DNA from: a phage
Assembly: GCA_036436775.1 (NCBI GenBank)
Contig: GCA_036436775.1_3676.1
Length of the DNA: 64,000 bases
Direction: 5' to 3' (one strand)
In this document: piece after piece, positions 10,270 to 63,482 of the stretch
Layout: each line of letters starts with the position of its first letter
Position numbering within the stretch: the stretch's first letter is position 1
Notes under the pieces: generated by a model
Told to the model about the DNA's origin: nothing
What the model saw: the letters and a program-made list of their open reading frames with translations, nothing else
Database searches by the model: none
Translations under genes and position numbers: made by a program

Positions 10270-10509
10270 ATGTACAAGTCATTTTCAATTTACTCAAGGC
10301 AGGCGAAACACTACACAGAGATCCTGATTACTCAGAAAAAATCTGTAGAAGGTGAGTGGGAATATCACCATAAAATGTTACGTCCAGATTGGGTTTTTGA
10401 TAGACTTATTGCCATGATTCCTCTTGGGGAAGTATACCCTCTGACAGGCGGGAGGGATGCTTGGGATTTAATTGATTACATAGATTCATTTAAGGAGCCC
10501 AGTGTATGA
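10270..10509 (+). CDS. Hypothetical protein
   Basis: ORF; start moved to ATG 10270 with AAGGGGG RBS. Confidence 0.55.
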   Translation: MYKSFSIYSRQAKHYTEILITQKKSVEGEWEYHHKMLRPDWVFDRLIAMIPLGEVYPLTGGRDAWDLIDYIDSFKEPSV

Positions 10510-10904
10510 AGATTGAGATCACTAAAGAAGGTAAGAAAGTGTCTGGAGACTATGCAACAGTAATTCGAGATTTAATGTTTGAAACCACCAAGTTCGGCAC
10601 ATCTAAAGTTGGTCAAACTGTTAGTGTGCAAGGCAATATCACCACAGGGGAGAAGATAATCATTGTAATCAAGGGGCAGGATCCTGTGGAAGGAACAGTG
10701 GGCCGAGGAGGATACCTGTGCATTTCTGAAGAGCCACGTATGCTGGTGGCTGACCACACTACAGGTGGGAAACGTGTGTGCGAGGCGGATGAGGTAATGA
10801 TTATTAAACCTGTTGATCCAGATGATCCAGCAACTTGGGTGGTAGGAAATGAAATCTTCTCCTTAGAAGAGTTATCCTTCCCAGCCCCACGCTCTGTTCA
10901 GTAA
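10506..10904 (+). CDS. Hypothetical protein
   Basis: 132-aa ORF, ATGA overlap with upstream gene. Confidence 0.6.
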   Translation: MKIEITKEGKKVSGDYATVIRDLMFETTKFGTSKVGQTVSVQGNITTGEKIIIVIKGQDPVEGTVGRGGYLCISEEPRMLVADHTTGGKRVCEADEVMIIKPVDPDDPATWVVGNEIFSLEELSFPAPRSVQ

Positions 10905-10943
10905 TAATTTATCTTGCCAGGGACGGTAGAAGCAGGAGGTAGC

Positions 10944-11177
10944 ATGAAAGTTAAATTTCTTACAGATTTAGGGTACCCTTCCTTGGTTGACTGCGTTGGT
11001 AAAATTGTGGAAGCAAAACGGCTATCTGCAAACGAGAATGTTGTCCTGGTTAAGGGAAAGGATTTACTAGCTGCAGGTGCAGAGTCTGGCAGGATCTCTC
11101 CTGACTATACATATTACCTATCTTTAAGTAATCTGCCAGAACGAGGCGGCAAAGGCCTTGAAGTTGTGGAGGAGTGA
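10944..11177 (+). CDS. Hypothetical small acidic protein (paralog family, ...LLAAGA...VEVVEE)
   Basis: ORF; start at ATG 10944 with GGAGGT RBS; shares motif with ORFs at 14607, 14821, 16697, 16965. Confidence 0.6.
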   Translation: MKVKFLTDLGYPSLVDCVGKIVEAKRLSANENVVLVKGKDLLAAGAESGRISPDYTYYLSLSNLPERGGKGLEVVEE

Positions 11178-11182
11178 CAGGT

Positions 11183-11707
11183 ATGCTTCTTATTAACTGG
11201 GAAGACCTCTATGGGGACAAAGACCCTGTTGCGTTTGTTGATCGTAGATGGAGATATACTGAAGAACAACTGGCTGCAAAAAATTTAACTGCGAAACGCA
11301 GAAAGATTATCCAGTGCAAGTACAAATACGCACAGTTTGCTGCAAAAGTGTCTCCACAAATCGAGAGCTTTGTACTTAAATTGTATGACGAGTATCTCAA
11401 ATTCAAATTGGATTTTGTGCAGGTATACCGTGCACAGGTACGCCCAGATACCAGCATTTGCAGATGGAAGGTTGTTTGTGACGGTAAAGCTTTGCCGATC
11501 AGCTTGACAATTGAGCAGCGTTGGGGGTATCATGAGTGTGGTCTGTATGAGACTTGGGATGTCATTGTAGATCCTGCTAAGTACCTGAACACAGAGGAGC
11601 TGGAATATATCAATAAGGTTATTCTAGATATGTTTTTCAACTACACCCGTGAAAACTCCGAGAAAGAACGAGATAATTTTCTTGACACCATCAGCAACCA
11701 TCTGTAG
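11183..11707 (+). CDS. Hypothetical protein
   Basis: ORF; start moved to ATG 11183 with GTGGAGGAG RBS. Confidence 0.6.
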   Translation: MLLINWEDLYGDKDPVAFVDRRWRYTEEQLAAKNLTAKRRKIIQCKYKYAQFAAKVSPQIESFVLKLYDEYLKFKLDFVQVYRAQVRPDTSICRWKVVCDGKALPISLTIEQRWGYHECGLYETWDVIVDPAKYLNTEELEYINKVILDMFFNYTRENSEKERDNFLDTISNHL

Positions 11708-11737
11708 TATATAATTTAACCTACAAAGGGAGGACTA

Positions 11738-11974
11738 ATGAGTATAGATGTTGCGCTAATAGGTTACCTGGTAATAGCCGTTATAACGGCAGTATTCTTG
11801 ACAGGTGTATGCATCGTGTCCACACGAAGGGTGAAGTTTGATGATTTTATCACTATCATCACTGCTGCACCTTTTTGGCCTGTTGTTATCTTCATCGTGA
11901 TAATGTGCCTGGTGGATTACTACAAGAATACCCGTAAGGAGAAAAAGGAGAGCAGGAATGGAGACTGCACCTAA
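11738..11974 (+). CDS. Small membrane protein
   Basis: 78-aa ORF with two hydrophobic segments; AGGGAGGA RBS. Confidence 0.6.
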   Translation: MSIDVALIGYLVIAVITAVFLTGVCIVSTRRVKFDDFITIITAAPFWPVVIFIVIMCLVDYYKNTRKEKKESRNGDCT

Positions 11975-12193
11975 AACTGTTTATACTGTTCTTAAAGAGA
12001 TTGCGTTCTACGCAGATCTTAGCCAGGCACCTTTATGGGAAAAGAGCATGTATTTAAAATGGTGCATTAATTTAGGGAGATCTTCCGGTGTTTCAAGCCA
12101 TGTTTATTGAAATGCTATCTGGGGTATTGTTACTGGTAACCATCTTAGGTGGTGCAGTTCTGATGTATAACTATCTTGAAAAAGGAGACAGCA

Positions 12194-12379
12194 ATGGTAA
12201 AAAATAAATCTTTAGAGCAGGCTGAAAACCTTCTCCACGAGCTGGTAAAGGAGTGGAAAGTTGAATACTCAGATTTTAATGCACGAGAGGGTGAAGATTA
12301 TTGGCCTACGGAGCGCTCAGAGGGTGAATGGTATCAAGATTTTATAGAGTGGTTATATCAGACGTGCGATGAGGGGTGA
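12194..12379 (+). CDS. Hypothetical protein
   Basis: ORF; ATG 12194 with AAGGAGA RBS. Confidence 0.55.
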   Translation: MVKNKSLEQAENLLHELVKEWKVEYSDFNAREGEDYWPTERSEGEWYQDFIEWLYQTCDEG

Positions 12380-12381
12380 CG

Positions 12382-12837
12382 ATGTTTGTTAAATATGTAA
12401 AAACGTGCCTCAATAGCCTTGGCAGAGAGCATTGGTATACCTTGCTTGAAAAAGGAGAAATTTTAACAAAATCTGGAAAGATAACTTTGGTGCCTCTTGA
12501 CAGTAAAGACCCGTCACTACTTGTTATAGATGATTACGTTACAGGTGTGACGTTCGAGGTATCTGTGGAGAGGTTAATACGCAGAGCTGGCGGCCCTTAT
12601 GACCGAAGAGAGTATGTTTTCGATTCCGTTACAGAGAGGGAGCATCCGTCTTTAATGTTCAGGATGGTAATCAGAGATATGAGGTCATCTATAGATAGGA
12701 TCGTAAAGGACATTAAGGAACCTTTTAGGGTAAAAGTTAAGAAGTTTTTTGATTCTAAGATTAACATACTTGCCGTTGTGCTGGGTGTAATTCAACTTCT
12801 GTTAATTTTGCACTATCTTGAACTGTTGTTTAAGTAG
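12382..12837 (+). CDS. Hypothetical protein with C-terminal hydrophobic segment
   Basis: ORF; ATG 12382 with GAGGGG RBS. Confidence 0.55.
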   Translation: MFVKYVKTCLNSLGREHWYTLLEKGEILTKSGKITLVPLDSKDPSLLVIDDYVTGVTFEVSVERLIRRAGGPYDRREYVFDSVTEREHPSLMFRMVIRDMRSSIDRIVKDIKEPFRVKVKKFFDSKINILAVVLGVIQLLLILHYLELLFK

Positions 12838-12847
12838 TGTACAATAA

Positions 12848-12864
12848 GGCACAAAGGATGTGCC
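12848..12864 (+). promoter_or_regulatory. Palindromic operator-like site GGCACAAAGGATGTGCC
   Basis: Second copy of the CACA-N4/5-TGTG palindrome seen at 5857-5872, same ~40-nt distance from the downstream ATG. Confidence 0.45.
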
Positions 12865-12897
12865 ATAACTAAATAAACTAAGAAAGAGGTAGAGAGA

Positions 12898-13245
12898 ATG
12901 CCAAAGATTAAATCGATATTAATGTGGGTAGCTGTTGTGGCTTTTATAGGGTACTGGGTTTGGGAAACTGAATTAAAAGATATCGGATATACCAGTCTTG
13001 AGAGCAAGGCGTGTATTGGCATAACCGATGCGTTCAGGCAAAACGCTATGGATCACGAATGTGTTGATGCAGATATAGATGAGAAACTGTCTAAGGACAA
13101 AGATTTTTACCATGGGCGTGCTTTGCTTGATAGTGGTGACACTGTAGAGTTCTGGTCGTGGTTCCGTGAAGATGGAACAATAAAAACAGCAGTAAAGATC
13201 TCTAACAAAGAGTTAATGCTGTTACAGCAGAAGGAGGCTCAATGA
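12898..13245 (+). CDS. Membrane-anchored hypothetical protein
   Basis: 115-aa ORF, N-terminal TM segment, AGAGGTAGAGAG RBS. Confidence 0.6.
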   Translation: MPKIKSILMWVAVVAFIGYWVWETELKDIGYTSLESKACIGITDAFRQNAMDHECVDADIDEKLSKDKDFYHGRALLDSGDTVEFWSWFREDGTIKTAVKISNKELMLLQQKEAQ

Positions 13246-13529
13246 TCTGGATATCCTATACTGATGGCACCATGCTGTATACTGCAGGTACCAGATATGA
13301 GGTTCAGGAGGACGATAAAAAATTTATCGTAAAAACATTTGACAAGGACGACAACCTTTTGCTAGAATTGGCTTACAAAGTGGGAGAGGTATCCAATATC
13401 CAATTGGATTGTGGTCATAAAGATAATCCACTCAAAAAACCTGGAATAGGAAAGGCTTCAGAAGAACGTTTGTCTCGTATTGCAGAAAGCGTTTCTCCCC
13501 AAAAATCTAAGAAGAGGATTAGAAAATGA
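13242..13529 (+). CDS. Hypothetical protein
   Basis: 95-aa ORF, ATGA overlap. Confidence 0.55.
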   Translation: MIWISYTDGTMLYTAGTRYEVQEDDKKFIVKTFDKDDNLLLELAYKVGEVSNIQLDCGHKDNPLKKPGIGKASEERLSRIAESVSPQKSKKRIRK

Positions 13530-13726
13530 GTGACAAAATTCTTAAATTTAATACCTACTATGAGAATGATTTGAACGATCTGTATTATATAGTGCGTAGC
13601 GAAAACCCAAATGTAGTACTGTTTTGCCGAGAACCTTTCAAAAAAGAGGAGATTGAATCTACCATGAATGTGGATCAGATTTCACACCTACTGCTCCTTG
13701 GATCATTAAAAGAGGCAGTATTCTAA
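13526..13726 (+). CDS. Hypothetical protein
   Basis: 66-aa ORF, ATGA overlap. Confidence 0.5.
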   Translation: MSDKILKFNTYYENDLNDLYYIVRSENPNVVLFCREPFKKEEIESTMNVDQISHLLLLGSLKEAVF

Positions 13727-13745
13727 ACCAAGGTAGAGGGTTTTT

Positions 13746-13931
13746 ATGAAGCACTATTGTCTATCTGGTAGAATGGGTGCAGATTGCGATTGGGTTTTCT
13801 TAAAACTTGTCAGCATTCGAGAGTGCATTCCAGAGGAAGAGCAAGAAAGCGAGCTGATGTCATGGATCAACCATTACGGTAACACTTTTCGGCATGTTAA
13901 GGTAGAAGAGTTGCCAAGCGAGGCTGATTGA
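13746..13931 (+). CDS. Hypothetical protein
   Basis: 61-aa ORF with GGTAGAGGG RBS. Confidence 0.5.
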   Translation: MKHYCLSGRMGADCDWVFLKLVSIRECIPEEEQESELMSWINHYGNTFRHVKVEELPSEAD

Positions 13932-13933
13932 CT

Positions 13934-14023
13934 ATGATTGCATCAATATTAACGTTTATGGGTGGCGTGGCATTCGGATTCATTGTTTGCCTGTTTATAG
14001 TGATTATGTCTATGCGAGGCTGA
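13934..14023 (+). CDS. Small hydrophobic peptide (29 aa)
   Basis: ATG with GAGG RBS; single predicted TM helix; fills gap between flanking genes; not in ORF track. Confidence 0.4.
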   Translation: MIASILTFMGGVAFGFIVCLFIVIMSMRG

Positions 14024-14026
14024 ATT

Positions 14027-14323
14027 ATGAAACTTTTTGAGTGGTTTAAAAAGTTTAAATATAAAGCTGTAGCCATCGTGCCGTGGTCCATTCAGTGGGT
14101 TGATGAAGGTGGTCTACCAATACCTGGTGACAAAGATACTGGGTACTGGATTATGATGGAGAACGGGTTTGGAAAGCGAAAGTATACGTGCACAAACTCT
14201 ACTCGATCTGCACTTAATAGAGTGCCTGGTTACAAACTTATGGTTGTGTGGAAAATGTCAGGTGTTCCTCCAGCTAATGCTCAATTTCTTACTGACAATC
14301 CGACCACGGTGGAGGGAGATTGA
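14027..14323 (+). CDS. Hypothetical protein
   Basis: 98-aa ORF. Confidence 0.55.
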   Translation: MKLFEWFKKFKYKAVAIVPWSIQWVDEGGLPIPGDKDTGYWIMMENGFGKRKYTCTNSTRSALNRVPGYKLMVVWKMSGVPPANAQFLTDNPTTVEGD

Positions 14324-14325
14324 TA

Positions 14326-14607
14326 ATGAAAAAGATTAACAGTGGTGAAGTCGAGTTTAAACTTGTCGGGAAAGGCACTTACTGGGAAGTTCGTCAAAAG
14401 GTATATTTGTTCGGTCTTATTCCCTATTGGTCTAAATTCTACTGGGGAGCTAACGAGTTGGGAAGATACGCCACCAAATCAATGGCACTTATTGGTATAG
14501 CAGAGTACATTGCAGCTAGAGATAGGGTTGGAGACACTTATTACTATACTGCGGACGATATTCGTAACAGTGTTTACGTCCCACAACCACCTGATGGAGA
14601 CCGTTGA
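14326..14607 (+). CDS. Hypothetical protein
   Basis: ORF; ATG 14326 with GGAGGGAG RBS. Confidence 0.55.
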   Translation: MKKINSGEVEFKLVGKGTYWEVRQKVYLFGLIPYWSKFYWGANELGRYATKSMALIGIAEYIAARDRVGDTYYYTADDIRNSVYVPQPPDGDR

Positions 14608-14831
14608 TGAAAGTTAGAGTTTTAGATTCAAGCTTCTATATTGGTCAGGAGCCTTTAGTAGGGAAAGTGTTTACTGCTGTCCCTAACGAAGATTACCCTG
14701 ACCTTTTAAAAATAAAAGGGGCAGATCTTATTGCCGCTGGTGCATCTCAGGAATGCTTTGACAGTCAGTGGACCTACAACTTTGCCCTAGGGGAGGATGT
14801 GGAGGTAGTGGAGGACGATCATGAAAGTTAA
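14607..14831 (+). CDS. Small acidic protein (paralog family A)
   Basis: MKVRVLD...GADLIAAGA...VEVVED; paralogous to 14821, 10944, 16697, 16965. Confidence 0.6.
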   Translation: MKVRVLDSSFYIGQEPLVGKVFTAVPNEDYPDLLKIKGADLIAAGASQECFDSQWTYNFALGEDVEVVEDDHES

Positions 14832-15075
14832 AATTCTTGACTCTAACGTCTACTTGGGACAATCCTTCCTGAAGGGAAAGGTCGTACCTGCTGTATACTT
14901 CGAAGAGTTGCCGTGGGATGATCCTGTGCGGCAAAATCACAGCTATGTAGGCCACAATGTGGTTTTCATCTTGGGATCAGACCTAATAGCGGCTGGTGCC
15001 CCGGAATATTATTTCGGAGAGGACTCGTATTATGCCTTTGGGGTAGGGTCAGATGCAGATATTTTAGAGCTGTGA
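14821..15075 (+). CDS. Small acidic protein (paralog family A)
   Basis: MKVKILD...GSDLIAAGA...; paralog of adjacent gene. Confidence 0.6.
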   Translation: MKVKILDSNVYLGQSFLKGKVVPAVYFEELPWDDPVRQNHSYVGHNVVFILGSDLIAAGAPEYYFGEDSYYAFGVGSDADILEL

Positions 15076-15485
15076 TGGGGACTGTTGTGAAAAATAAACT
15101 GTTCAAAGTTACAATGAAAATTCGCGGAGCTTGGAGCGTAAAGCAAGGGCGTATCCCGGAATTTGAGAAAGACTTCTACGTAGTCTCCACCTCTGAAGAG
15201 GCTGCATGCTGGCAGGCTGGCTATGCCTATGCAAGAACTTGGTACGAAGGATACCAGACTGGGGGCTATGACGGAGAAATTATCAGCAAGGGTGTAGAAG
15301 AAATTAATGTGTTGACAAGTGAAAAAGTTTTTGTTATAGTGCATCCAGATTCCAGAGTGAAGCATTATTGGAATGCCAGAACAAAAACTTGGACACCGTT
15401 TGCAGATTCTGCTACACCACTTTTAAACCAAAAAGCTCTTGACTCTGCCCCGAGCTATGGGGTTGTTGAAGAAAAGCTAAACTGA
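15075..15485 (+). CDS. Hypothetical protein (paralog family B)
   Basis: Shares HP.S...YW...TWTP...TPLL segment with ORF 17297-17692. Confidence 0.6.
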   Translation: MGTVVKNKLFKVTMKIRGAWSVKQGRIPEFEKDFYVVSTSEEAACWQAGYAYARTWYEGYQTGGYDGEIISKGVEEINVLTSEKVFVIVHPDSRVKHYWNARTKTWTPFADSATPLLNQKALDSAPSYGVVEEKLN

Positions 15486-15502
15486 AACAGTGAGGTGCCA
15501 CT

Positions 15503-15793
15503 ATGATGGATTTAGTTCTGAATATTGATAACGCAGGAGAGGTTAAAGACGATGGTGTAACAAGCATGGACCAACCATGCCCTGCAAAGATTGACTCAAA
15601 ATGGACATATAAGTTTGACGGAGAGATCTCTGCAAATGATGAAAAGGTTGTAGATGCTGCAGCCATTTTGAACGCTCTAGGGTACGACCCTGTGAATTCT
15701 TTGATCAAGGATCCTGTTGAGTTTGCAGAGTATGTTCGAAAAATGGCAGATCTTGCTGTAGATATTTTAAATACTATCGACAACAATCTGTAA
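15503..15793 (+). CDS. Hypothetical acidic protein
   Basis: 96-aa ORF with GAGGTG RBS. Confidence 0.6.
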   Translation: MMDLVLNIDNAGEVKDDGVTSMDQPCPAKIDSKWTYKFDGEISANDEKVVDAAAILNALGYDPVNSLIKDPVEFAEYVRKMADLAVDILNTIDNNL

Positions 15794-15799
15794 AAACTG

Positions 15800-15828
15800 T
15801 TGACACAACGCTTCAGCTATAGTATTAT
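15800..15828 (+). promoter_or_regulatory. Sigma70-like promoter TTGACA-N17-TATTAT upstream of HPF homolog
   Basis: Hexamers read directly. Confidence 0.55.
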
Positions 15829-15877
15829 TGTTTTCAAAGAGAGAGCTATATTCCCTCTTCTTTAAAAGGAACACGTT

Positions 15878-16195
15878 ATGCAAATTGAGATCACTGGCAA
15901 CGTAGAAATCACCGAAGGTATGGTGTCTTTCATTTCCCACAAAATGTCAAAACTGGAGCGTCTACATCCTTCTGTAAATCATGCACGTGTAAGTGTAAAA
16001 GTTGAAAATGATCACCAGGAAGTTATGGCGTTCATTTTTGACACTTCTGGAAAAGAAGTTATTGCCAAAGCTAAAGGCAGTGATGCTTACGAGGCAACTG
16101 ACCGTATGGTAGATGTTGCAGCACGTCAGCTGGCTAAATGCGGTGGAAAGAAAGGTAAAGGGAAAGGAAAAGTAAAGATTGACTTTGGAGAATGA
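15878..16195 (+). CDS. hpf: Ribosome hibernation promoting factor / RaiA (YfiA-HPF family) homolog with Lys/Gly-rich tail
   Basis: 105-aa ORF; MQIEITGNVEITE...KLE...VKVE...ARQL pattern matches bacterial HPF from memory. Confidence 0.7.
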   Translation: MQIEITGNVEITEGMVSFISHKMSKLERLHPSVNHARVSVKVENDHQEVMAFIFDTSGKEVIAKAKGSDAYEATDRMVDVAARQLAKCGGKKGKGKGKVKIDFGE

Positions 16196-16204
16196 GGTGC
16201 TACA

Positions 16205-16306
16205 ATGGGCGTGATTAAGAAATTAGTCCCAAGTGTAGAGATTGCATGCTTTGAAATTATGTTTGCAATCGCAGTTGTAGTTAATGTGTTAGGTTACGGC
16301 TATTAA
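16205..16306 (+). CDS. Small hydrophobic peptide (33 aa)
   Basis: ATG with GAGGTG RBS right after HPF stop; hydrophobic C-terminus; not in ORF track. Confidence 0.4.
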   Translation: MGVIKKLVPSVEIACFEIMFAIAVVVNVLGYGY

Positions 16307-16332
16307 TATCAAATAATTGAGGAGACCTCTAA

Positions 16333-16602
16333 ATGAAAATTAAATTATTCAAAACCGAGCTGGCAGACAAAAACTGTGGACTGGTTGAAGGCATGATCGT
16401 TGAAGCACAACCAGTAGACTACATGAAGGTAGTTCGTGATGCCTTGGGTGAAGGTTTTGATCTGATGGAACCAGCTCTGCGAGAAGATGTTATCGAGATG
16501 GCTAAAAAGCACACACCTGAAGGCATGGTGGTGTTTGTTGCACCGGGTAACGGAGAAGAGTTGATTGTAACCCCTGATGTGTATGAGATTGTAGAAGAAT
16601 AA
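16333..16602 (+). CDS. Small acidic protein
   Basis: 89-aa ORF with GAGGAG RBS; ends ...EIVEE. Confidence 0.6.
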   Translation: MKIKLFKTELADKNCGLVEGMIVEAQPVDYMKVVRDALGEGFDLMEPALREDVIEMAKKHTPEGMVVFVAPGNGEELIVTPDVYEIVEE

Positions 16603-16696
16603 TCCTGCTTGGATTGGCATGCTTCCTCAATAAAAAGAGAAGTTTGTAATTATTTGTGGGAAAGGAATCCCAATCTCTTACCAGAGGTGATACTAT

Positions 16697-16960
16697 ATGA
16701 TTGTTTATTTTAAAACTTCAGGTGGATACCCTGATTCTCAAAGCTTGATCGGAAAAACGTGCACAGCATACTCACCTCTTGATGAAGAGGTAGGTGATAT
16801 TCTACGAAATATGTATCGGATTGACCCCCAAGAAGCTTTTGATCAAAACCTTGTATTTGTCAAGGGCTCAGACATGAAGTCTTTGGGAGCATTCCCTGAA
16901 GCAGATGATGATGCCGTTTATTCGTTCATGACCCCTTTTGAAGCTATGGTTGTTGGGTGA
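16697..16960 (+). CDS. Small acidic protein (paralog family A)
   Basis: ...VKGSDMKSLGAFPE... resembles 14607/14821 products. Confidence 0.55.
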   Translation: MIVYFKTSGGYPDSQSLIGKTCTAYSPLDEEVGDILRNMYRIDPQEAFDQNLVFVKGSDMKSLGAFPEADDDAVYSFMTPFEAMVVG

Positions 16961-16964
16961 TAAT

Positions 16965-17297
16965 ATGAAAGTACGCTTTATTGGTGAAACAATTCCTGTG
17001 CATCTCCGGTCGCCTGAAGATTCTGCAGATCTTGCATCTCAGAAGGCGAGAGGTTATGATAAGAAAGTAATCTCAACCGATGTAGAACTTGAGGCCACTA
17101 GTCTACCTGACCCCGCTGCATTCTTTAATCATTATGGATACTATTTCAGCAATCTGATGAATATCGGTGAGCTTGTGTTTATTAATGGTGGAGAAATTGT
17201 TAGCAAGCTTGGCGGCGATCCGGATGTCTTTCATGAAACCTGTCCTTTTGCATTTGTTGTTGGTTCAGATGTGGAAGTTATTGAGGAGGTGCGGTAA
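16965..17297 (+). CDS. Small acidic protein (paralog family A)
   Basis: ATG 16965 with GGGTGA RBS; ends ...GSDVEVIEEVR. Confidence 0.55.
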   Translation: MKVRFIGETIPVHLRSPEDSADLASQKARGYDKKVISTDVELEATSLPDPAAFFNHYGYYFSNLMNIGELVFINGGEIVSKLGGDPDVFHETCPFAFVVGSDVEVIEEVR

Positions 17298-17692
17298 TGA
17301 TAAGCCTATACCGTGTCGAGTATAGCTCAGATACTGTATACAACGTAAGAAGCAAAGATCGCAGCGACAGAGTGCAAGAAATGTATGTTCTTGCCGACAG
17401 TCCTTTATCTGCAGCGTTCAAGGCAGGGGCTCTTGCATCTCGTTGGAAATTTGAAGGCGGATCTTTCTATGAAGAAACCCTTGAAGATTCTGTTGTTATT
17501 TCTTCTGTAGGGGTTTCAGATGATTACGAAGGGAAAAAGTTCGTAATGCGGCACCCACACAGCAACATTGCGTACTACTGGGATGTTCTGAACAACGAGT
17601 GGACCCCAGATCTTCAGAAGGCTACTGTGCTAACACCGTTTTTGGCAGATAAGTTCCCACCAGAAGGTAATTTATCCGCACTGTTTCAGTAA
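17297..17692 (+). CDS. Hypothetical protein (paralog family B)
   Basis: Paralog of 15075-15485 (RHPHSNIAYYW...EWTPDL...VLTPFL). Confidence 0.6.
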   Translation: MISLYRVEYSSDTVYNVRSKDRSDRVQEMYVLADSPLSAAFKAGALASRWKFEGGSFYEETLEDSVVISSVGVSDDYEGKKFVMRHPHSNIAYYWDVLNNEWTPDLQKATVLTPFLADKFPPEGNLSALFQ

Positions 17693-17710
17693 TTTTCTTG
17701 CACACAGGTG

Positions 17711-17739
17711 TTGACAACACCAACCCTGTGTGAAATAAT
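17711..17739 (+). promoter_or_regulatory. Sigma70-like promoter TTGACA-N17-AATAAT
   Basis: Hexamers read directly. Confidence 0.5.
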
Positions 17740-17771
17740 ACCTTCATCTTAACAAGACAGGAGACTGATTG

Positions 17772-18029
17772 ATGAAGATTAAACTGAAAAACCTTGAAAT
17801 GGCAGAGATTCAGGATGGTGTTGATTTCCGCTCTAAAGATGGTGACATCTTAGAGGTAAATCTTCCAACCTACAAGCTGATTAAAGGTTTTGGCAACGTT
17901 CCGGAAGAGGATATTCCAGAAATTCTTATGATGTTGATTCTTGACGGAACTGTGTTTGTAGGTGAAGGTGAGAACGCTATTGCAATCCCAGGCCATTTTT
18001 ATGAAGTAGTTGACGAAGAGGTGCTGTAA
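17772..18029 (+). CDS. Small acidic protein
   Basis: ORF; ATG 17772 with AGGAG RBS. Confidence 0.6.
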   Translation: MKIKLKNLEMAEIQDGVDFRSKDGDILEVNLPTYKLIKGFGNVPEEDIPEILMMLILDGTVFVGEGENAIAIPGHFYEVVDEEVL

Positions 18030-18380
18030 ATGAAAGTAGAAATTACTGGTTTTGATGTTAATGTGGTTCCGGAAGATATTTTAGCTAATCTTCCGGAAGG
18101 TTTTGGTAACGGTGTTGTGGTGGATGCTGTTCCTCCTACCAAAGACATTCTGCTGCAGTACGGTGTAGCAGAGGAAGATGTCGATAAAGTTCTTACAATG
18201 ATGGCAATCGATCGTGTTGTCGTTGTTAAAGGTCTTGATAATTTTGAGAGTGATCCCCTGATTATTCGTGGAGATGACTACCGAATCATTGATAATGAAG
18301 GCCAAGAGTTCTATGAACCTTGTGCAGAAGATATTCTTAACTTATTACTGGAAGCAGGCACCGAAGAGGAGGACGAATAA
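18030..18380 (+). CDS. Small acidic protein
   Basis: 116-aa ORF immediately after upstream stop. Confidence 0.6.
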   Translation: MKVEITGFDVNVVPEDILANLPEGFGNGVVVDAVPPTKDILLQYGVAEEDVDKVLTMMAIDRVVVVKGLDNFESDPLIIRGDDYRIIDNEGQEFYEPCAEDILNLLLEAGTEEEDE

Positions 18381-18709
18381 TGAAGATTGACCAGTTACTG
18401 AAAGCTCGTGCAGAAAAAGCGTACACCATTAAGCTGACCAACCTGGTTCCTACTTGTCATCCGGATGTAGGTTGGCCCGAAGGTCTGGTAGAGGGAACTG
18501 TAACAGCTGCATACCTTCCTAACATCAAGTATCTTATGGAGATCTTAGAGATGGATGAGGAAACTGCAGAACAGTTCCAGTTAGATATGAAACAGAGTGG
18601 GACTTTGGTTATTCACGGGTGGTATAATACTAAAGATGCAGAAGACCCTCTGGTAACTTCTAATCTGGCATATGAAATCTTAGGGCCTTTGAACCTGGAG
18701 GAAGCCTAA
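18380..18709 (+). CDS. Hypothetical protein
   Basis: 109-aa ORF, TAATG overlap. Confidence 0.6.
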   Translation: MKIDQLLKARAEKAYTIKLTNLVPTCHPDVGWPEGLVEGTVTAAYLPNIKYLMEILEMDEETAEQFQLDMKQSGTLVIHGWYNTKDAEDPLVTSNLAYEILGPLNLEEA

Positions 18710-18996
18710 TGAAAGATCTGGTTAAGATTAAGATTAAAGATACCAATGGAGAACTCAGCCATTTTGGAATTAATGATGGTGACGAGCTGATCGCACACCT
18801 GCCTACTAAGGAGGTTGTAAGCAAAGCAGTTGCCGGAGAAGAAGCTGCAATGCAGGCTGCAGGTGTGGATGAAAACTATGTAGCTATGTGCATGTGCCGA
18901 GATCAGGTTGTTCTGTATAAAGCGTATCGACCAAACGGATCCACGGAGTGGCTTGTATTCCGACCCGAAGGATATGAAATCTTAGAGGCACTATGA
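18709..18996 (+). CDS. Hypothetical protein
   Basis: 95-aa ORF, TAATG overlap. Confidence 0.6.
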   Translation: MKDLVKIKIKDTNGELSHFGINDGDELIAHLPTKEVVSKAVAGEEAAMQAAGVDENYVAMCMCRDQVVLYKAYRPNGSTEWLVFRPEGYEILEAL

Positions 18997-19085
18997 TAAA
19001 TCTTGCCAAGGTTGCAACGGCACTGTTAATTATTTGCTGGTCTGTAACCTTAACACTGTGTCTTGTATTTCAGTGAGGTGCTTGT

Positions 19086-41393: not shown

Positions 41394-41757
41394 TCATCAG
41401 ATCTGCCATAGCGTCACCAACGAAGAGGACAACCACATCGTTGACAGCGTCAGCATCATCTTTGTTGACGTTGCTGAATTTAGGACACACAGCAATGATC
41501 ATGTAAACACCATTACCAACCTGAACTGTCCGTGTGGTGCACATCATGGCGGTATTTGTACCTTCTTTGAAAGCGAAGCCTTGAAGACGCTCCTCCAAAG
41601 TGTTACCGGTAGATTTCAGAAGCGCCAGCTCGTCCAGGGCATAGATGATATCTCCGGAAGTTAGTGTTGCCTTGCCATCAGACACCATAATCACTCCATC
41701 AGCGCCATCAAGCTTAGAGGCTTCAAAGATATCAATATCCCAAATATTTTTCATCAC
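41365..41757 (-). CDS. Hypothetical protein
   Basis: 130-aa ORF. Confidence 0.55.
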   Translation of the reverse strand: MMKNIWDIDIFEASKLDGADGVIMVSDGKATLTSGDIIYALDELALLKSTGNTLEERLQGFAFKEGTNTAMMCTTRTVQVGNGVYMIIAVCPKFSNVNKDDADAVNDVVVLFVGDAMADLMNAGEAANED

Positions 41758-42026
41758 GCTTCCTCATCATCTAAGTAATCATCAAGAGAGGTGAAGATTT
41801 CACCGAAGTATTCTAAGATTTCTAGCTCACGTGTGGTGCAGCAAACATAATCGCCTTGGTCGTCCTTAATAGTGGCCTCTTTACCCAGAATATCTACTTC
41901 AAGTTCATCGTTCAACAGGACGGCCCCTGTGTAAACTTTGTCAGCTGTGCAGTCACGAAAAGCAGAGTCCTTCTCCAGATAGCCTGGCTTAACCTTGGCT
42001 TTAATTCGTTGGTATTGTTTGGTCAT
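41754..42026 (-). CDS. Hypothetical protein (paralog of 42091-42345)
   Basis: Shares D.AFRDCT...KDD.GD.V.CT segments with neighbour. Confidence 0.55.
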   Translation of the reverse strand: MTKQYQRIKAKVKPGYLEKDSAFRDCTADKVYTGAVLLNDELEVDILGKEATIKDDQGDYVCCTTRELEILEYFGEIFTSLDDYLDDEEA

Positions 42027-42090: not shown

Positions 42091-42345
42091 TTAATGTTCA
42101 GTTTTTACAAAAACTACTTCGTTAACAGTGCACCAGACAGAGTCTCCTTCATCATCTTTAAAGGTAAGGCACTGTGCTGAGTTTTCCAGCTCATCAAGCT
42201 CTTCTTGTGATAGAGGGGCCCCTTCTTCCAAAAGGGCTTTTACCAAAGGGTTATCACAAAACTCTGCTTCATAAATAGCGCCAAGTGTGCAATCTTTAAA
42301 AGCTCGGTCGTTTGCAACGCATTCTGGTTTCAACATGATTTTCAT
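42091..42345 (-). CDS. Hypothetical protein (paralog of 41754-42026)
   Basis: 84-aa ORF with AAGGAGACC RBS. Confidence 0.55.
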   Translation of the reverse strand: MKIMLKPECVANDRAFKDCTLGAIYEAEFCDNPLVKALLEEGAPLSQEELDELENSAQCLTFKDDEGDSVWCTVNEVVFVKTEH

Positions 42346-42803: not shown

Positions 42804-42998
42804 CTAAACGAACTCTGCAAGAGTTGTGTTGTTCACTGCACCGCAGTAAATGGAGTATCCCAGCCCATTAGAGTGCAGAAACCACGGCGTGCCGAAATTA
42901 TCTTTCACGTAGACATCGCCGTTGTTTGTAAAGGGCCAATATTCTTCACCAAGGGTAAAATACCTATTCATACCTTCAGCAAGATACTTTACTTTCAT
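42804..42998 (-). CDS. Hypothetical protein
   Basis: 64-aa ORF. Confidence 0.5.
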   Translation of the reverse strand: MKVKYLAEGMNRYFTLGEEYWPFTNNGDVYVKDNFGTPWFLHSNGLGYSIYCGAVNNTTLAEFV

Positions 42999-43222
42999 AG
43001 GTCCTCTTCAACAACTACAAACTTGGCAAGCAAAGTGGTTCCGTAGATATGATACTCACCGTTTGCCAGGTGAGAGATATACCAGGCAACCCCTTCCTCG
43101 TCTTTAATCATTTTGTTTGCACGAGCTTTATCGTAATAAACCTCGTAGGTCTTTCCTTCTTTAAAGAATGACAGGTCTGTCATCTTTTCTTCTACAAAGG
43201 TAGCTTTAACCAAAGTCGTCAT
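42995..43222 (-). CDS. Hypothetical protein
   Basis: 75-aa ORF. Confidence 0.5.
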   Translation of the reverse strand: MTTLVKATFVEEKMTDLSFFKEGKTYEVYYDKARANKMIKDEEGVAWYISHLANGEYHIYGTTLLAKFVVVEEDL

Positions 43223-43503
43223 TGATCGGTCTCCCTCTTGTTAAGTCTGAATACTGCAATAATAGCATTCCCAAGGTGCAGTGTCAAGTCATTTCCAAGA
43301 TACCACAGCATCCCACGGTCATCTTTAATGAAAGGGTAACAATCTGGTGCCTTCCAGACATTGTACACTTTCCCAACCTGAAAGAAATCAGGCCCTGTTG
43401 GGATTTTGGTACCAGGCCACACTTGAGATACCTGAACACACTCCACCTGCATAATAACAGGAATAGTCATGGATGTAAATGTTTTTGTTGGTTCTACTAC
43501 CAT
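43219..43503 (-). CDS. Hypothetical protein
   Basis: Start moved to ATG with AAAGAGGAAACTTTT RBS. Confidence 0.5.
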   Translation of the reverse strand: MVVEPTKTFTSMTIPVIMQVECVQVSQVWPGTKIPTGPDFFQVGKVYNVWKAPDCYPFIKDDRGMLWYLGNDLTLHLGNAIIAVFRLNKRETDQ

Positions 43504-43552
43504 AAAAGTTTCCTCTTTGCTTAACAGCACCTCCCTGTGCTGATAGTTTACA

Positions 43553-43906
43553 TTAGTGACAATCACCCCAGTTACGACCACACAAGTATTCACCTGTGAT
43601 CTGGAACGGGACTCCCATCATTTTAGAAGCTTGCCAGAAGCAATGCACCACCATTTCACCTACAGGGCTCCAGATAAGTTCAAGCTTTCCGTCATCGTTC
43701 AGGATAGGATCGTACACCGTGTTTCCGTCTCTGTCAACCACTTCGTTTCCGTCCTCATCCTTGCGTGCTTTTTTGTACTTATGACCGTCGAACACATGAA
43801 GTTTGGCCTCCTGCTCTGCCTTAAATGCTTCCAGTTCTTCAATTGTGTCGAAGGTGTACACAGTCTTATACTTCGGTGTGTCAGGGACTTGAAGTTGGTA
43901 CTCATC
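43553..43906 (-). CDS. Family-A DNA polymerase, C-terminal segment (candidate exon 2, motif C onward)
   Basis: Frame begins DEYQLQV...; ends GRNWGDCH, matching the G.NW..H terminus of Pol I/T7 gp5 as recalled; no ATG or RBS of its own. Confidence 0.7.
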   Translation of the reverse strand, partial: DEYQLQVPDTPKYKTVYTFDTIEELEAFKAEQEAKLHVFDGHKYKKARKDEDGNEVVDRDGNTVYDPILNDDGKLELIWSPVGEMVVHCFWQASKMMGVPFQITGEYLCGRNWGDCH

Positions 43907-46664: not shown

Positions 46665-48743
46665 TTAAAAAGGTGTTTCATCGTCTTCAAAACCTGGAAC
46701 AGGGTCAGAGGACGGATCATCATACGGAAGGTCTTCCTGTGTGTCAACAGGGTTAACAGTAGGAGTTACAACCTTATCAGCCACAACCCTACCTACAGGT
46801 GTTTCTACAACTGCGTGCTCTTGATCCTCGAACATAGCTTGAGGTCTCCAAACAACCTCCCCACCTTCGCCGTCTGTGAACATCTGCATTTCTTTGTCCC
46901 AGTACCAGTTGCTGGCATCGTGGAACTTACCTGTGTGGGGATCCATAACTAAGGTATCCGCAATGCCTAACGTTTTTGCTGGGCGGTTTTTAAGACCTAC
47001 CAGTCGGACACGTCCACGGGAACGATCCACCATCTCTTCTGCCTCCACCCCAACAACTACCCAGCTAAGTTGCTCCAATCCGGCACTACCCCGAAGGTTC
47101 TCTTTTCGTACAGGATACCAGAAAGGTAACGGATTCCCATCCTTGTCCTTTGGAGGCACAATCTCTGTGCGTTTCAGGTGAGCGATCACCAAGATAAATA
47201 CATTAAACTGCTTACAGAACGCGGCTAGTTGCGTCATAGCCATGTCAAGTTCTTTGCGCTCATCCTTAACATTAAGCCCTGAAATTACCATGGACAGGTG
47301 ATCCAGCACAATGTAACGGCAGTGATACAGACACACCATTTGTTTAAGCTTAGTGATCAACTCATCTACAGGAATAGACCCAAAATGCTTGAACACTTTG
47401 ATTTTTCCCGCCTTGGCCCAAGATTGGTGAATCTCGGCATGCTCCTGATCAGTCAGGAACTGACTAGGGTCTTCAACAAACTCTTTAACATCAAACCCCA
47501 ACTGGTTGGCGTATAGAGAGTTAATTGCTTCCTCAGGGTCCTCTTCAAGGTGAATCAGACACAGGCGATCATCCTCTTCATAATCATCGGCTTTAGGGCA
47601 TGTCGGATCCATCAAGTATTTTGCAATGCAATGTTCTAGTTTCTTGGCTACAGTTGTTTTACCACCGCCAGATGGGCCTGTCAGCATCATCAAGGTGCCT
47701 TTGTGGAGTCCTTTCAGCATCTTCTGCAATTTAGGGAACTCCGCGCTGATATCTACGCCATTAGAAGTCTTCTTACGAAGAGATTCAATGGAGAAGTCTT
47801 CTAAATCAGATACAGCATCGGGCACATATTTGACTGGGTGACGGAACATGTTGACAATATCTTCCAGCTTTTTAGCCTTCAGCATGTCACGGATATCTTT
47901 TACACCGTCAGGGTCGTTTACCTCACTGGGGTATTCCACGTGGTAAACGTTATCAGCCATCAAAAATGCCGCGATATTATGTGTGGCTTCAACACCTTTG
48001 ATAACGTGTTTTTGCTTCTCTACCTCGTTAGCTGCATCGTTGTCCATTGCAAGGACCACTGTTCCGTAGCTACGGATAAATTTCTCATTGTTTGCAAAAG
48101 TATCTACTGCGTTTGCACATCCACAGTTAATTCCAACAAAAGGTAGACAGGGTTTTCCTGCCAGATCACCTCCGTTGATAACTGCATCGATCCCGTCCTG
48201 GACCTCTTTAGCCCACTGCTTAACCTTTGCTGGGGCCTTGGCATTAGTGAGAATCCCTTTTACTTGTATCTGATATGCAGCCTGCCACGCTGCAATAACA
48301 TCACCTTCCCCCTCACAAACGTTAATTTGCTTACGGTTGTTGGAAGATGCACACAGCTTTTGACCAAACATCTGGGAGTTAGCCTTCACGATCCCAACCG
48401 TCGTAAAGTGCCCACGTTGCTCTTTAGGAATCGTCCAGTCACGCTTTTTGAAACCGGATAGATTTCCGTAGCGGTCGTAATATGGGAAATATGTTGCAGT
48501 GACTGTCACACCGTCTTCTTGGGACAATGCTGATCGCACACCAAAATATTGTGCAGCCATCAGACCGATGTTTTGTTGCGGGACAGGGACAATTTTAGTA
48601 TTTTCTAAAACAGTCTCTACAGTTTCAACTTCTTTTTCATCACGATAGTCTCGTTTCACACTTCCCCCACTTTTATACTTAGTTGCTTTCGGGTTTGGCT
48701 CACCGAAACGGTTGTATGCAGATGCCATAAATTTACTTCCCAT
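46665..48743 (-). CDS. DNA primase-helicase (TOPRIM primase + DnaB-like helicase)
   Basis: 692-aa ORF; TOPRIM acidic motifs (VCEGEGD, LAMDNDAAN), Walker A GPSGGGKTT, Walker B VLDHLS. Confidence 0.75.
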   Translation of the reverse strand: MGSKFMASAYNRFGEPNPKATKYKSGGSVKRDYRDEKEVETVETVLENTKIVPVPQQNIGLMAAQYFGVRSALSQEDGVTVTATYFPYYDRYGNLSGFKKRDWTIPKEQRGHFTTVGIVKANSQMFGQKLCASSNNRKQINVCEGEGDVIAAWQAAYQIQVKGILTNAKAPAKVKQWAKEVQDGIDAVINGGDLAGKPCLPFVGINCGCANAVDTFANNEKFIRSYGTVVLAMDNDAANEVEKQKHVIKGVEATHNIAAFLMADNVYHVEYPSEVNDPDGVKDIRDMLKAKKLEDIVNMFRHPVKYVPDAVSDLEDFSIESLRKKTSNGVDISAEFPKLQKMLKGLHKGTLMMLTGPSGGGKTTVAKKLEHCIAKYLMDPTCPKADDYEEDDRLCLIHLEEDPEEAINSLYANQLGFDVKEFVEDPSQFLTDQEHAEIHQSWAKAGKIKVFKHFGSIPVDELITKLKQMVCLYHCRYIVLDHLSMVISGLNVKDERKELDMAMTQLAAFCKQFNVFILVIAHLKRTEIVPPKDKDGNPLPFWYPVRKENLRGSAGLEQLSWVVVGVEAEEMVDRSRGRVRLVGLKNRPAKTLGIADTLVMDPHTGKFHDASNWYWDKEMQMFTDGEGGEVVWRPQAMFEDQEHAVVETPVGRVVADKVVTPTVNPVDTQEDLPYDDPSSDPVPGFEDDETPF

Positions 48744-49527
48744 TAATTCTGCTCCTTACTACAGGCTCGTTTGCTAAGAATACGGCTTTTGCCCAGCCAC
48801 GGGGTGTGAGGCTTCGGATCATCTTCGTCCTTGCACTTTTTCCACCTAGCTTAGCGTGTTGCATGGAATAACCGCTAACCACATCAACTATTTGCGGGAC
48901 AGGTTTTGTGGCCGGGATTATAAATCCATTACCTATCCATCCGCAAGTTATTTTTGGATAGGCATCGCGTGGAGCTATAAATTCAGGAAACCATGGGTTT
49001 ACATCATCTTCCGGTAAATACCCGCCATAATCAGAAGGGTGAAAACGGTAGTCAGGTTTGCGCCACAATGTGGACATAACTCCAACAGGGTTCTCTACAT
49101 GCCACGGGCAATCGTAAATCTCTCCCAACTCTTCTGCAACCCGAGCATCCTTTACAGCATTAATTTGGATCAGCGGATCCTTAGCCAGTTTCTTCTTAAA
49201 GTGTGCAGCACCGGACACCGCTAAGTGAGTGCACGGAGGAAATGCAAGAACAAAGTCCGGAGCTGGGTACATGCAGAAAGTTTCCTGAGGAAACCATGGA
49301 TCAATCCAATAATCTACATAGTGAATATTTGGATGATCGGTTATCACCTCTGCATAACTGCCGTGGTCAGCACCTTCTGCGTTAAAGCACAGGCACAGAT
49401 ACCCAGCTTTTGCCCAGTCAATGACTGCACCTCCAGACCCGTCAAATAGACTCCACACAACACCTTTGTGGTAGTGCTCTTTATAGATAAATTTCAATTT
49501 GCTGTCTCCTAATGCAAAAAGCCCCAC
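48733..49527 (-). CDS. DNA cytosine-C5 methyltransferase-like protein (atypical)
   Basis: Motif I-like SLFDGSGG, motif IV-like PPCTH (not canonical PCQ), motif VI-like HVENPVG; short at 264 aa. Confidence 0.45.
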   Translation of the reverse strand: MGLFALGDSKLKFIYKEHYHKGVVWSLFDGSGGAVIDWAKAGYLCLCFNAEGADHGSYAEVITDHPNIHYVDYWIDPWFPQETFCMYPAPDFVLAFPPCTHLAVSGAAHFKKKLAKDPLIQINAVKDARVAEELGEIYDCPWHVENPVGVMSTLWRKPDYRFHPSDYGGYLPEDDVNPWFPEFIAPRDAYPKITCGWIGNGFIIPATKPVPQIVDVVSGYSMQHAKLGGKSARTKMIRSLTPRGWAKAVFLANEPVVRSRINGK

Positions 49528-62955: not shown

Positions 62956-63219
62956 ATGGCAACAGAGTTAAAATTTGCATCAAACCGTAAAACTAAGAAG
63001 TATCTGTCCTCAGTGGCTCCAGGCACTGTGGTGATGTTTATTGATGAACTTGGGGATGTGAATACAGCACTTGTTGTAAAATCACATCCTGCAAACATAT
63101 ATGTTGGGGTATTTGACCTGTTCAGAAAGGTGTTTGTAGAACTACCTCACAGTTTGGTTGTTACAGAAATGGATGCCTGCATAGAAATTCTTGGCGAAGT
63201 TATGGTGGAGGAACAATAA
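62956..63219 (+). CDS. Small protein, tandem paralog 1 of 4
   Basis: 87-aa ORF with AGAGGAGG RBS; pattern ...GTVV...V.E...ILGE shared with next three ORFs. Confidence 0.6.
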   Translation: MATELKFASNRKTKKYLSSVAPGTVVMFIDELGDVNTALVVKSHPANIYVGVFDLFRKVFVELPHSLVVTEMDACIEILGEVMVEEQ

Positions 63220-63482
63220 TGGCTACTAGCATTGTATTCAATTCTAAGGTGAAGAACAAAAAGCGTGCAGACAGTTTTCCGTGTGGGACCGTGGTAAGTT
63301 GCGACGGAGACGGCATTCAAAACATAGTTATGATTGTCAAAACAGGAGAACATTGTGTGTGGGGGTTCGATTTAGAAAATAATGAGTTGTACGATCTGCC
63401 GCCAAACATGAAAGTTACAGAGCTTGACACCAAAATTACCATCCTTGGAGAGACAAGCTATTCAAAAGAAGGAGGAGAATAA
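63219..63482 (+). CDS. Small protein, tandem paralog 2 of 4
   Basis: 87-aa ORF, TAATG overlap. Confidence 0.6.
   Translation: MATSIVFNSKVKNKKRADSFPCGTVVSCDGDGIQNIVMIVKTGEHCVWGFDLENNELYDLPPNMKVTELDTKITILGETSYSKEGGE

Follow-up and report, generated by a model that had tools for sequence, protein, structure and literature searches.

Paralogous small proteins with a predicted SH3-like fold in a Vequintavirus genome, and a three-gene module with a host-dependent requirement

Why would a phage keep several short, similar-looking genes in one region, and what do they do there? The question is raised by a 64,000-nucleotide stretch of phage DNA (NCBI GenBank assembly GCA_036436775.1, contig GCA_036436775.1_3676.1; hereafter the window), in which a preliminary description made from the sequence had picked out seven open reading frames (ORFs) as two families of small acidic proteins. 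The window is a Vequintavirus (rV5-like) genome: over positions 10500-19000 it shares 90-97% identity with most of 122 phage records. Nearly all of these come from Escherichia phages in the genus Vequintavirus (rV5-like myoviruses), and vB_EcoM-Pr121LW is the closest, at 97.3%. All seven ORFs are present on the + strand, and each corresponds to one annotated rV5 gene labelled 'hypothetical protein'. We refer to five of them as A-E (the family Fam1) and to the other two as X and Y; B-C-X and D-E-Y make up triads 1 and 2. Together with a further family, Fam2 (F-J), they form a set of small accessory proteins that has expanded specifically in the rV5-like lineage.

Two paralog families in parallel triads

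The solitary Fam1 copy is A (10944-11177, 77 amino acids (aa), rV5 gp122). The first and second genes of triad 1 are B (14607-14831, 74 aa, gp135) and C (14821-15075, 84 aa, gp136), and those of triad 2 are D (16697-16960, 87 aa, gp142) and E (16965-17297, 110 aa, gp143). The third genes are X (15075-15485, 136 aa, gp137) and its paralog Y (17297-17692, 131 aa, gp144). The start of X is ambiguous: we use the ATG at 15075, the rV5 annotation begins at 15087, and that of Bas54, a phage discussed below, at 15114.

Fam1 and X/Y are true paralog families. When a hidden Markov model (HMM) built from four Fam1 members was searched against the full set of 457 ORFs of 40 aa or more in the window, the left-out member was always the top non-seed match (E = 1.2e-6 for A, 5.1e-16 for B, 5.5e-15 for C, 2.5e-6 for D and 2.1e-5 for E), with the next unrelated ORFs at E >= 0.27. 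Smith-Waterman scores set against 500 composition-preserving shuffles gave z = 23.2 for B-C (38.6% identity over 83 aa), 15.3 for A-B, and 5.4-7.8 for A-C, A-D, B-D, B-E, C-D and C-E, with E scoring 7.8 against B and 7.7 against C. X and Y are 28% identical over 119 aa (z = 17.7), and all-against-all BLASTP of the window recovered B-C, X-Y and A-B at E <= 4e-6. The only Fam1 pairs that are not significant alone, A-E (z = 0.8) and D-E (z = 2.8), are linked through B and C. These two pairs would suit the notion that the similarity is merely a composition artefact of short, acidic, AT-rich ORFs, but the leave-one-out HMMs, the shuffles and the profile search rule that notion out, and we give it practically no weight: eight of the ten Fam1 pairs as well as X-Y exceed all or nearly all of the shuffles, cross-family control pairs lie at background, leave-one-out E-values reach 5e-16, and database relatives (44 clusters, see below) share the same end-to-end pattern and a confidently predicted common fold. 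The similarity thus goes beyond composition bias, and both families are real.

Part of this paralogy is already implicit in the PHROGs database, in four groups annotated as 'unknown function' (phrog_5009, phrog_13920, phrog_13661 and phrog_7379). For A, B and C the match to phrog_5009 runs from end to end (E about 1e-32 to 1e-37; 8.5e-36 for A), D matches it weakly at 1.2e-4, and X and Y match the 131-position phrog_7379 profile over its full length (E = 4.9e-74 and 5.5e-65). That clustering gives no indication of function, fold or context, and in it D and E stand apart from Fam1, the two defining PHROGs of their own (phrog_13920, which contains D, and phrog_13661); E joins Fam1 only via the in-window profile and via B and C.

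The motif originally proposed for the five ORFs, MKV...L(I/L)AAGA...VEV(V/I)EE, occurs in full in just A and B: VEV is missing from C, and the corresponding residues are MIV/MKSLGA/AMVVG in D and KLGG in E. The family signature is broader, MKVK-L...Y...GKVV-A...[insert]...V-I-G-x-(D/E)-L-I-x-x-G-A...Y-x-F...E-(V/I)-(V/I)-E, and all five members give an end-to-end profile match. 'Small acidic' likewise describes B-E (isoelectric point (pI) 4.1-4.6) and Y (4.8), fits A weakly (5.4), and does not fit X (7.8).

A tandem Fam1 pair stands immediately before each X/Y gene, an arrangement with P = 3.1e-4 in 200,000 permutations of 27 genes. The junctions match as well: B and C overlap by 11 nt and D and E lie 4 nt apart, every one of the gene starts has a Shine-Dalgarno sequence, and the third gene is in both cases joined to the second by a one-base stop/start overlap (TGATG at C/X, TAATG at E/Y), which suggests translational coupling. 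The mirrored arrangement of 14607-15485 and 16697-17692 that the preliminary description had noted is therefore borne out as a parallel gene order with matching junctions, but the segmental duplication that had been read from it is no more than plausible.

Predicted fold, Fam2 and relatives in other phages

AlphaFold2, run on a 35-sequence Fam1 alignment with B as the modelled member, returned five strands with a short helix after strand 3 (predicted local distance difference test score 90.2, predicted template modelling score 0.78). Fam1 is predicted to fold as a small, partly open, five-stranded SH3-like beta-barrel, and the model superposes on SH3, KOW or PsaE structures. The likeness to SH3-like domains (Spt5/NusG KOW, PsaE, eukaryotic SH3) lies in the fold alone, with sequence identities of 4-24%, and Fam1 differs from them in several respects: a conserved short helix (G-x-DLI-x-AGA) follows strand 3, a lineage-variable insert separates strands 2 and 3, and the proteins are free-standing, 65-116 aa long and without a Pfam KOW or SH3 match. 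The helix (G-x-D/E-L-I-x-x-G-A) is the most conserved element of the family. The inserts of C, D and E all fall at one position, between beta2 and beta3, that of D being 24 aa and that of E the longest.

Searches of Pfam, NCBIfam, PADLOC and PDB sequences gave no match for any member of Fam1, Fam2 or X/Y. No Pfam family, KOW (PF00467) included, was found at E < 1 for any Fam1 member or at E < 0.1 for 36 diverse Fam1 relatives, and PADLOC-DB, which covers known and candidate defence proteins, had no match at E < 1 for nine of the proteins. Foldseek of the Fam1 model against BFVD returned only uncharacterised small phage proteins. The X/Y alignment holds two distinct sequences only. In the literature, we found no paper describing the Fam1 or X/Y families.

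Fam2, which the preliminary description had not listed, has five members on the + strand: F (16333-16602, 89 aa, gp141), directly upstream of triad 2, and the tandem genes G (17772-18029), H (18030-18380), I (18380-18709) and J (18709-18996), corresponding to gp145-gp148. Leave-one-out searches among the 457 window ORFs gave E-values of 5e-6 to 1.5e-3 (5.7e-4 for F), and shuffle z-scores were 7.3 for G-H and 5.3 for F-G. G-J are all acidic (pI 4.0-4.8), and the database relatives of Fam2 are all orthologs in vequintaviruses. With G as the modelled member, the predicted fold is likewise SH3-like, with a helical insert where three Fam1 members have theirs. MK(V/I)K starts and (V/Y)E(V/I)(V/I)EE ends are found in both families, and their models, viewed singly, are each SH3-like with an insert between strands 2 and 3. 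A common origin of Fam1 and Fam2 is plausible; Smith-Waterman scores between them lie at background. Fam1 compared with X/Y by hhalign gave no significant similarity.

Beyond the window, a word-indexed Fam1 profile search of 5.8 billion proteins returned 38 clusters, mostly from 120-140 kb vequintavirus-like contigs, and a full HMMER scan of 1.84 billion representatives returned 44 clusters at E <= 1e-3. The latter are mostly 63-87 aa long with the pattern MKVKLLNDGGY..G...VGKVV.A...I.G.ELI.AGA...F...Y.F..G.E.EVVEE, the exceptions being a few multi-domain forms, fragments and two matches that we rejected as repetitive-sequence artefacts (P0046 and P0062, of 5191 aa and 765 aa). Two or three Fam1 domains occur in one chain in P0052, P0053 and P0078. 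The last of these (219 aa) consists of two Fam1 domains and then a tail of ~60 aa, which is the order of the triad; this tail, with a weak X/Y profile match (E = 0.08 among 9 sequences), is the only candidate found for an X/Y-like domain fused to Fam1. Among 119 phage records, X itself keeps an identity of 95% or more in 116.

Homologs resembling A (41-49% identity; mEp021_40, mEp554) occur singly in lambdoid phages and prophages, among small ORFs between the antiterminator Q and the holin, and prophage homologs of Fam1 are present in 13 of 5426 complete E. coli genomes. Four other temperate-phage contigs carry a single Fam1 copy between recombination genes and the integrase. These two lambdoid accessory slots, Q-to-lysis and recombination genes to integrase (examples are mEp021_40 and P0031), typically carry host-interaction and counter-defence genes. 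Unlike the rV5-like triads, the temperate-phage gene is solitary, without an X/Y or Fam2 partner, and its expression would come from a late or early-left operon, as against a sigma-70 block in the lytic phage. Apart from Fam1, the only gene common to prophage Q-to-lysis regions and the window is an unrelated methyltransferase-like gene. This second gene common to this lytic phage and temperate phages is a 264-aa ORF at 48733-49527 (- strand), 53-58% identical to mEp021_33 ('putative DNA cytosine methyltransferase') of mEp021 and the Fam1-bearing lambdoid prophages.

Host-dependent requirement and possible function

Bas54 (Escherichia phage MaxBurger, MZ501093) can do without D, E and Y on E. 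coli K-12, but each of the three is indispensable on the uropathogenic isolate CFE311, where X is partly required. The data come from transposon sequencing (HIDEN-SEQ) of that phage, and the log2 fold changes given here are from the K-12 versus CFE311 resampling in Extended Data Table 8 of the preprint (10.1101/2025.11.20.689424). By BLASTP, D corresponds to bas54_0152 (98.9% identity), E to bas54_0151 (96.4%), Y to bas54_0150 (97.7%), X to bas54_0157 (100%), C to bas54_0158, B to bas54_0159 and A to bas54_0166, while F, G, H, I and J correspond to bas54_0153, 0149, 0148, 0147 and 0146; orthology was checked at 96-100% identity. On K-12 all mapped orthologs tolerate insertions, with 25 of 25 TA sites hit in Y, which like the A ortholog is classed as non-essential, and with D, E and F classed as 'Intermediate' at a saturation of about 0.7 (10.1101/2025.11.20.689424). 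On CFE311 mean counts fall from 142 to 0.0 in D (log2 fold change -7.16), from 71 to 0.0 in E (-6.17), from 108 to 0.0 in Y (-6.77) and from 256 to 57 in X (-2.14), all with an adjusted p of 0, and there are zero reads at 14 TA sites in D and 21 in E. F drops from 142 to 19.8 (-2.78, not significant), and A, B, C and G-J range from -0.30 to +0.98 (A, +0.72; none significant; 10.1101/2025.11.20.689424). The host dependence anticipated in the preliminary description is thus found for triad 2, whose orthologs are conditionally essential on CFE311.

The authors do not mention D, E or Y, and validated only the anti-DS-28 genes bas54_0063 (a MoxR ATPase) and bas54_0140, by knockouts tested against the cloned defence system DS-28 (10.1101/2025.11.20.689424). 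These two genes are likewise dispensable on K-12, and their log2 fold changes on CFE311 (-7.23 and -5.48) are of a magnitude like those of D, E and Y, which were not followed up. In these published data, the D, E and Y orthologs show the behaviour looked for in counter-defence genes, being dispensable on a permissive host and required elsewhere. We also note that the sheet 'resampling_K-12_vs_CFE303' (S6) is the CFE311 run, since its console line names the 311 file and the values checked are identical to those of S7; CFE303 results are therefore absent from the supplement, and one clinical host is documented.

Two sigma-70-type promoters were found by scanning, each with 11 of 12 matches and each coinciding with an annotated rV5 promoter: TTGACA-17-TATTAT at 15800-15828 (+; P144) and, between Y and G, TTGACA-17-AATAAT with a TG extension at 17711-17739 (+; P150). 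Between the triads, at 15878-16195, lies a ribosome hibernation factor (HPF/RaiA homolog, rV5 gp139). Judged by this layout, the predicted promoter P144 probably drives HPF, gp140, F, D, E and Y, so that HPF is probably co-transcribed with F, D, E and Y. Early expression of the genes, as presumed in the preliminary description, would be in line with the sigma-70 promoters annotated in rV5; we found no vequintavirus transcriptome in the literature.

We lean towards regarding the triads as host-specific accessory modules that act as counter-defence binders. What points this way is that the proteins are small and acidic with a binder-like predicted fold, that second and third genes share one-base overlaps, that tandem Fam1 fusions exist, and that solitary homologs sit in accessory slots. 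The three proteins of each triad would be made together and act together, possibly as a complex, and may neutralise a strain-specific host factor by binding it stoichiometrically, with an anti-phage defence system as the most likely target; the paralogs and the adjacent array of SH3-like Fam2 proteins could then be specialised on different host targets or variants. A more pointed version, which we offer tentatively and think rather doubtful, is that two SH3-like proteins and an X/Y protein constitute an undescribed three-protein counter-defence module, present in two diverged copies alongside about six further SH3-like binders, with each member neutralising a different strain-variable E. coli immune system and D-E-Y inhibiting a defence of CFE311.

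Several points weigh against a counter-defence role. The CFE311 requirement rests on one host and one experiment, the preprint contains no biochemical or genetic link from the triad genes to any defence system (10.1101/2025.11.20.689424), and the requirement could reflect non-immune host differences. The value for F, although not significant, leaves room for a local or polar effect. X/Y has no relatives outside this lineage, and B and C persist without X in a 128-kb metagenomic contig related to the window (L011; 29-95% protein identity), so the Fam1 pair is not strictly dependent on an X/Y partner. By hhalign, Fam1 and Fam2 are not significantly similar in sequence (probability 0.7-6%; E = 0.003-0.08, taken as for a single comparison). 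Finally, in the V18 record (L010, NC_041937; 5630-6228) D and E carry one frameshift each and are annotated as fragments of 59 aa and 46 aa, which is either real pseudogenisation or sequencing error.

The same phenotype might arise if only Y, and in part X, mattered on CFE311, with the depletion of D and E being polar or local and Fam1 kept beside X/Y by ancestry alone. D, E and Y are contiguous and probably co-transcribed, E and Y overlap at TAATG, F just upstream also drops, in triad 1 only X is depleted and not B or C, and B and C outlive X in L011. Against this, HPF (-0.53) and gp140 (+0.26), farther upstream in the same putative unit, are not depleted (10.1101/2025.11.20.689424), and insertions in B and C do not mimic the X phenotype, as they would if the transposon were generally polar; both observations make simple polarity unlikely. 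D and E are moreover depleted as fully as Y, and they are among the most conserved genes of the region, with ratios of nonsynonymous to synonymous substitution rates (dN/dS) of 0.088 and 0.055. We consider this explanation improbable. The proteins could instead be host-takeover regulators, whose SH3/KOW-like barrels would bind host RNA polymerase, NusG/Rho partners or the ribosome and redirect this machinery to the phage, and the need for them on CFE311 would then be a matter of host physiology. That D-E-Y and the phage's ribosome hibernation factor are probably co-transcribed from a sigma-70 promoter, within a cluster of small genes that host RNA polymerase transcribes, is in keeping with such a role. 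The Fam1 proteins lack a Pfam KOW match at E < 1, however, insertions in HPF are neutral in both hosts, and the core machinery is near identical in K-12 and clinical E. coli, so that dispensability on K-12 together with the need on CFE311 fits a variable host factor better; we regard takeover as unlikely.

It is quite improbable, in our estimate, that the function is host-specific without being directed at immunity, concerning instead the envelope, capsule or stress responses of CFE311 or a prophage-encoded superinfection exclusion. Several tail-fibre and baseplate genes of Bas54 are also conditionally essential on CFE311, which means that the screen is not specific to immunity, but the proteins considered here are small, soluble and acidic, have no transmembrane- or secretion-related Pfam match (a Pfam search only, with no dedicated signal-peptide or transmembrane predictor), and are not virion-associated in any annotation seen; prophage-encoded exclusion, for its part, would itself count as defence. 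Of the readings considered, that of host-specific counter-defence binders seems to us the most likely.

Duplication history, selection and meaning

If the triads arose by duplication of a block, B should be closest to D and C to E, whereas B is nearest to C (52 bits) and then to A (34 bits). In a neighbour-joining tree with 300 bootstraps the deep groupings reach at most 14% (B+D 1%, C+E 11%, B+C 13%, D+E 14%), A groups with the lambdoid-prophage homologs (74%) and not with B-E, and the pairing of orthologs with those of a divergent relative is well supported. A DNA repeat search between the triads found no surviving nucleotide similarity beyond matches of 15-34 nt. Recombination between neighbouring genes has left its own trace: P0015 and P0019 (70 aa, from 133-kb contigs of other vequintaviruses) are B::C hybrids joined at DLIAAGA, and the junction coincides with the sole conserved stretch of B and C, 22 nt at 82% identity (14722-14743 and 14978-14999). 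The hybrids indicate unequal crossing-over that deleted 256 bp and thus show recombination between neighbours to be ongoing, which may explain the closeness of B and C. In L011, at protein identities of 29-75% for this comparison, A-E, Y and F-J are all syntenic and only X is missing, so the paralogs are older than that split. An ancient duplication of the triad, or of a Fam1-X/Y pair, is a plausible and the simplest explanation, with an exact order that is not recoverable; later divergence and recombination between neighbouring copies would have blurred it.

Further observations concern gene content around the triads. In L011 (8692-8982 and 11092-11388), the X slot holds a 96-aa ORF with no window protein match at E <= 1e-3, and Y and G are separated by an inserted gene that carries Pfam PF27050 (Phage_P22_Y8K6). 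The stretch matching 11183-14323 of the window is a hotspot of gene loss and allele replacement: gp128-gp133 are deleted in Bas54 (L012) and gp123-126 and gp131 in V18, and in ECP26, SYGMH1 and BP9 the alleles of gp131, gp133 and gp134 are very divergent, at about 70% nt identity. This genome seems prone in general to duplicating small genes in tandem, as three more adjacent pairs of small paralogs are found at 62956-63219 / 63219-63482 (+; 39% identity, E = 7.5e-10), 42091-42345 / 41754-42026 (-; 34%, 1.7e-7) and 42995-43222 / 43219-43593 (-; 31%, 1.5e-4); several of their proteins have the same 'MK.K...acidic tail' look. Eighteen GenBank records titled 'Campylobacter phage' (MG0656xx, host C. 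jejuni) share 94-96% identity with E. coli vequintaviruses over 8.5 kb and are probably mislabelled or contaminant assemblies.

Every paralog is under purifying selection among present-day orthologs. With Nei-Gojobori counts pooled over seven vequintavirus genomes, dN/dS is 0.115 for A, 0.127 for B, 0.148 for C, 0.088 for D, 0.055 for E, 0.082 for X and 0.030 for Y, compared with 0.033-0.175 for Fam2, 0.048 for HPF and roughly 0-0.36 for other neighbours. The host-driven diversifying selection proposed in the preliminary description finds no support here, as values of 0.03-0.15 lie in the range of the neighbouring genes; divergence between the paralogs themselves is too old for dS-based tests. 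Variation in C (10 clusters at 90% identity), including a 4-aa indel, is concentrated in the beta2-beta3 insert, the one element that is visibly hypervariable.

The preliminary description was thus partly right: its paralogy, parallel modules and host dependence hold, the order of duplication is not established, and diversifying selection at the present day finds no support. The words 'paralog' and 'duplicat' do not occur in the rV5 genome paper (PMC3606486), and neither this paper nor the Aionostat Bas54 evolution preprint has anything on this region. New here are the predicted SH3-like fold of Fam1, the family Fam2, the homologs in prophage accessory regions, and the Bas54 phenotype of D-E-Y.

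The families themselves are uncharacterised but of a familiar class, the lineage-specific accessory gene families of large lytic phages. The idea that a paralog array equals diversifying selection is not borne out in this case, each copy being conserved. Twelve neighbouring genes labelled 'hypothetical' now fall into two defined families for which a fold is predicted, and with them come a three-gene module that recurs and a definite phenotype. About two thirds of the genes of rV5-like phages are without a function, although these phages see wide use against pathogenic E. coli. Through the module, a new determinant of host range or counter-defence becomes accessible, and possibly also the host system that it defeats, which bears on the choice or engineering of therapeutic phages.

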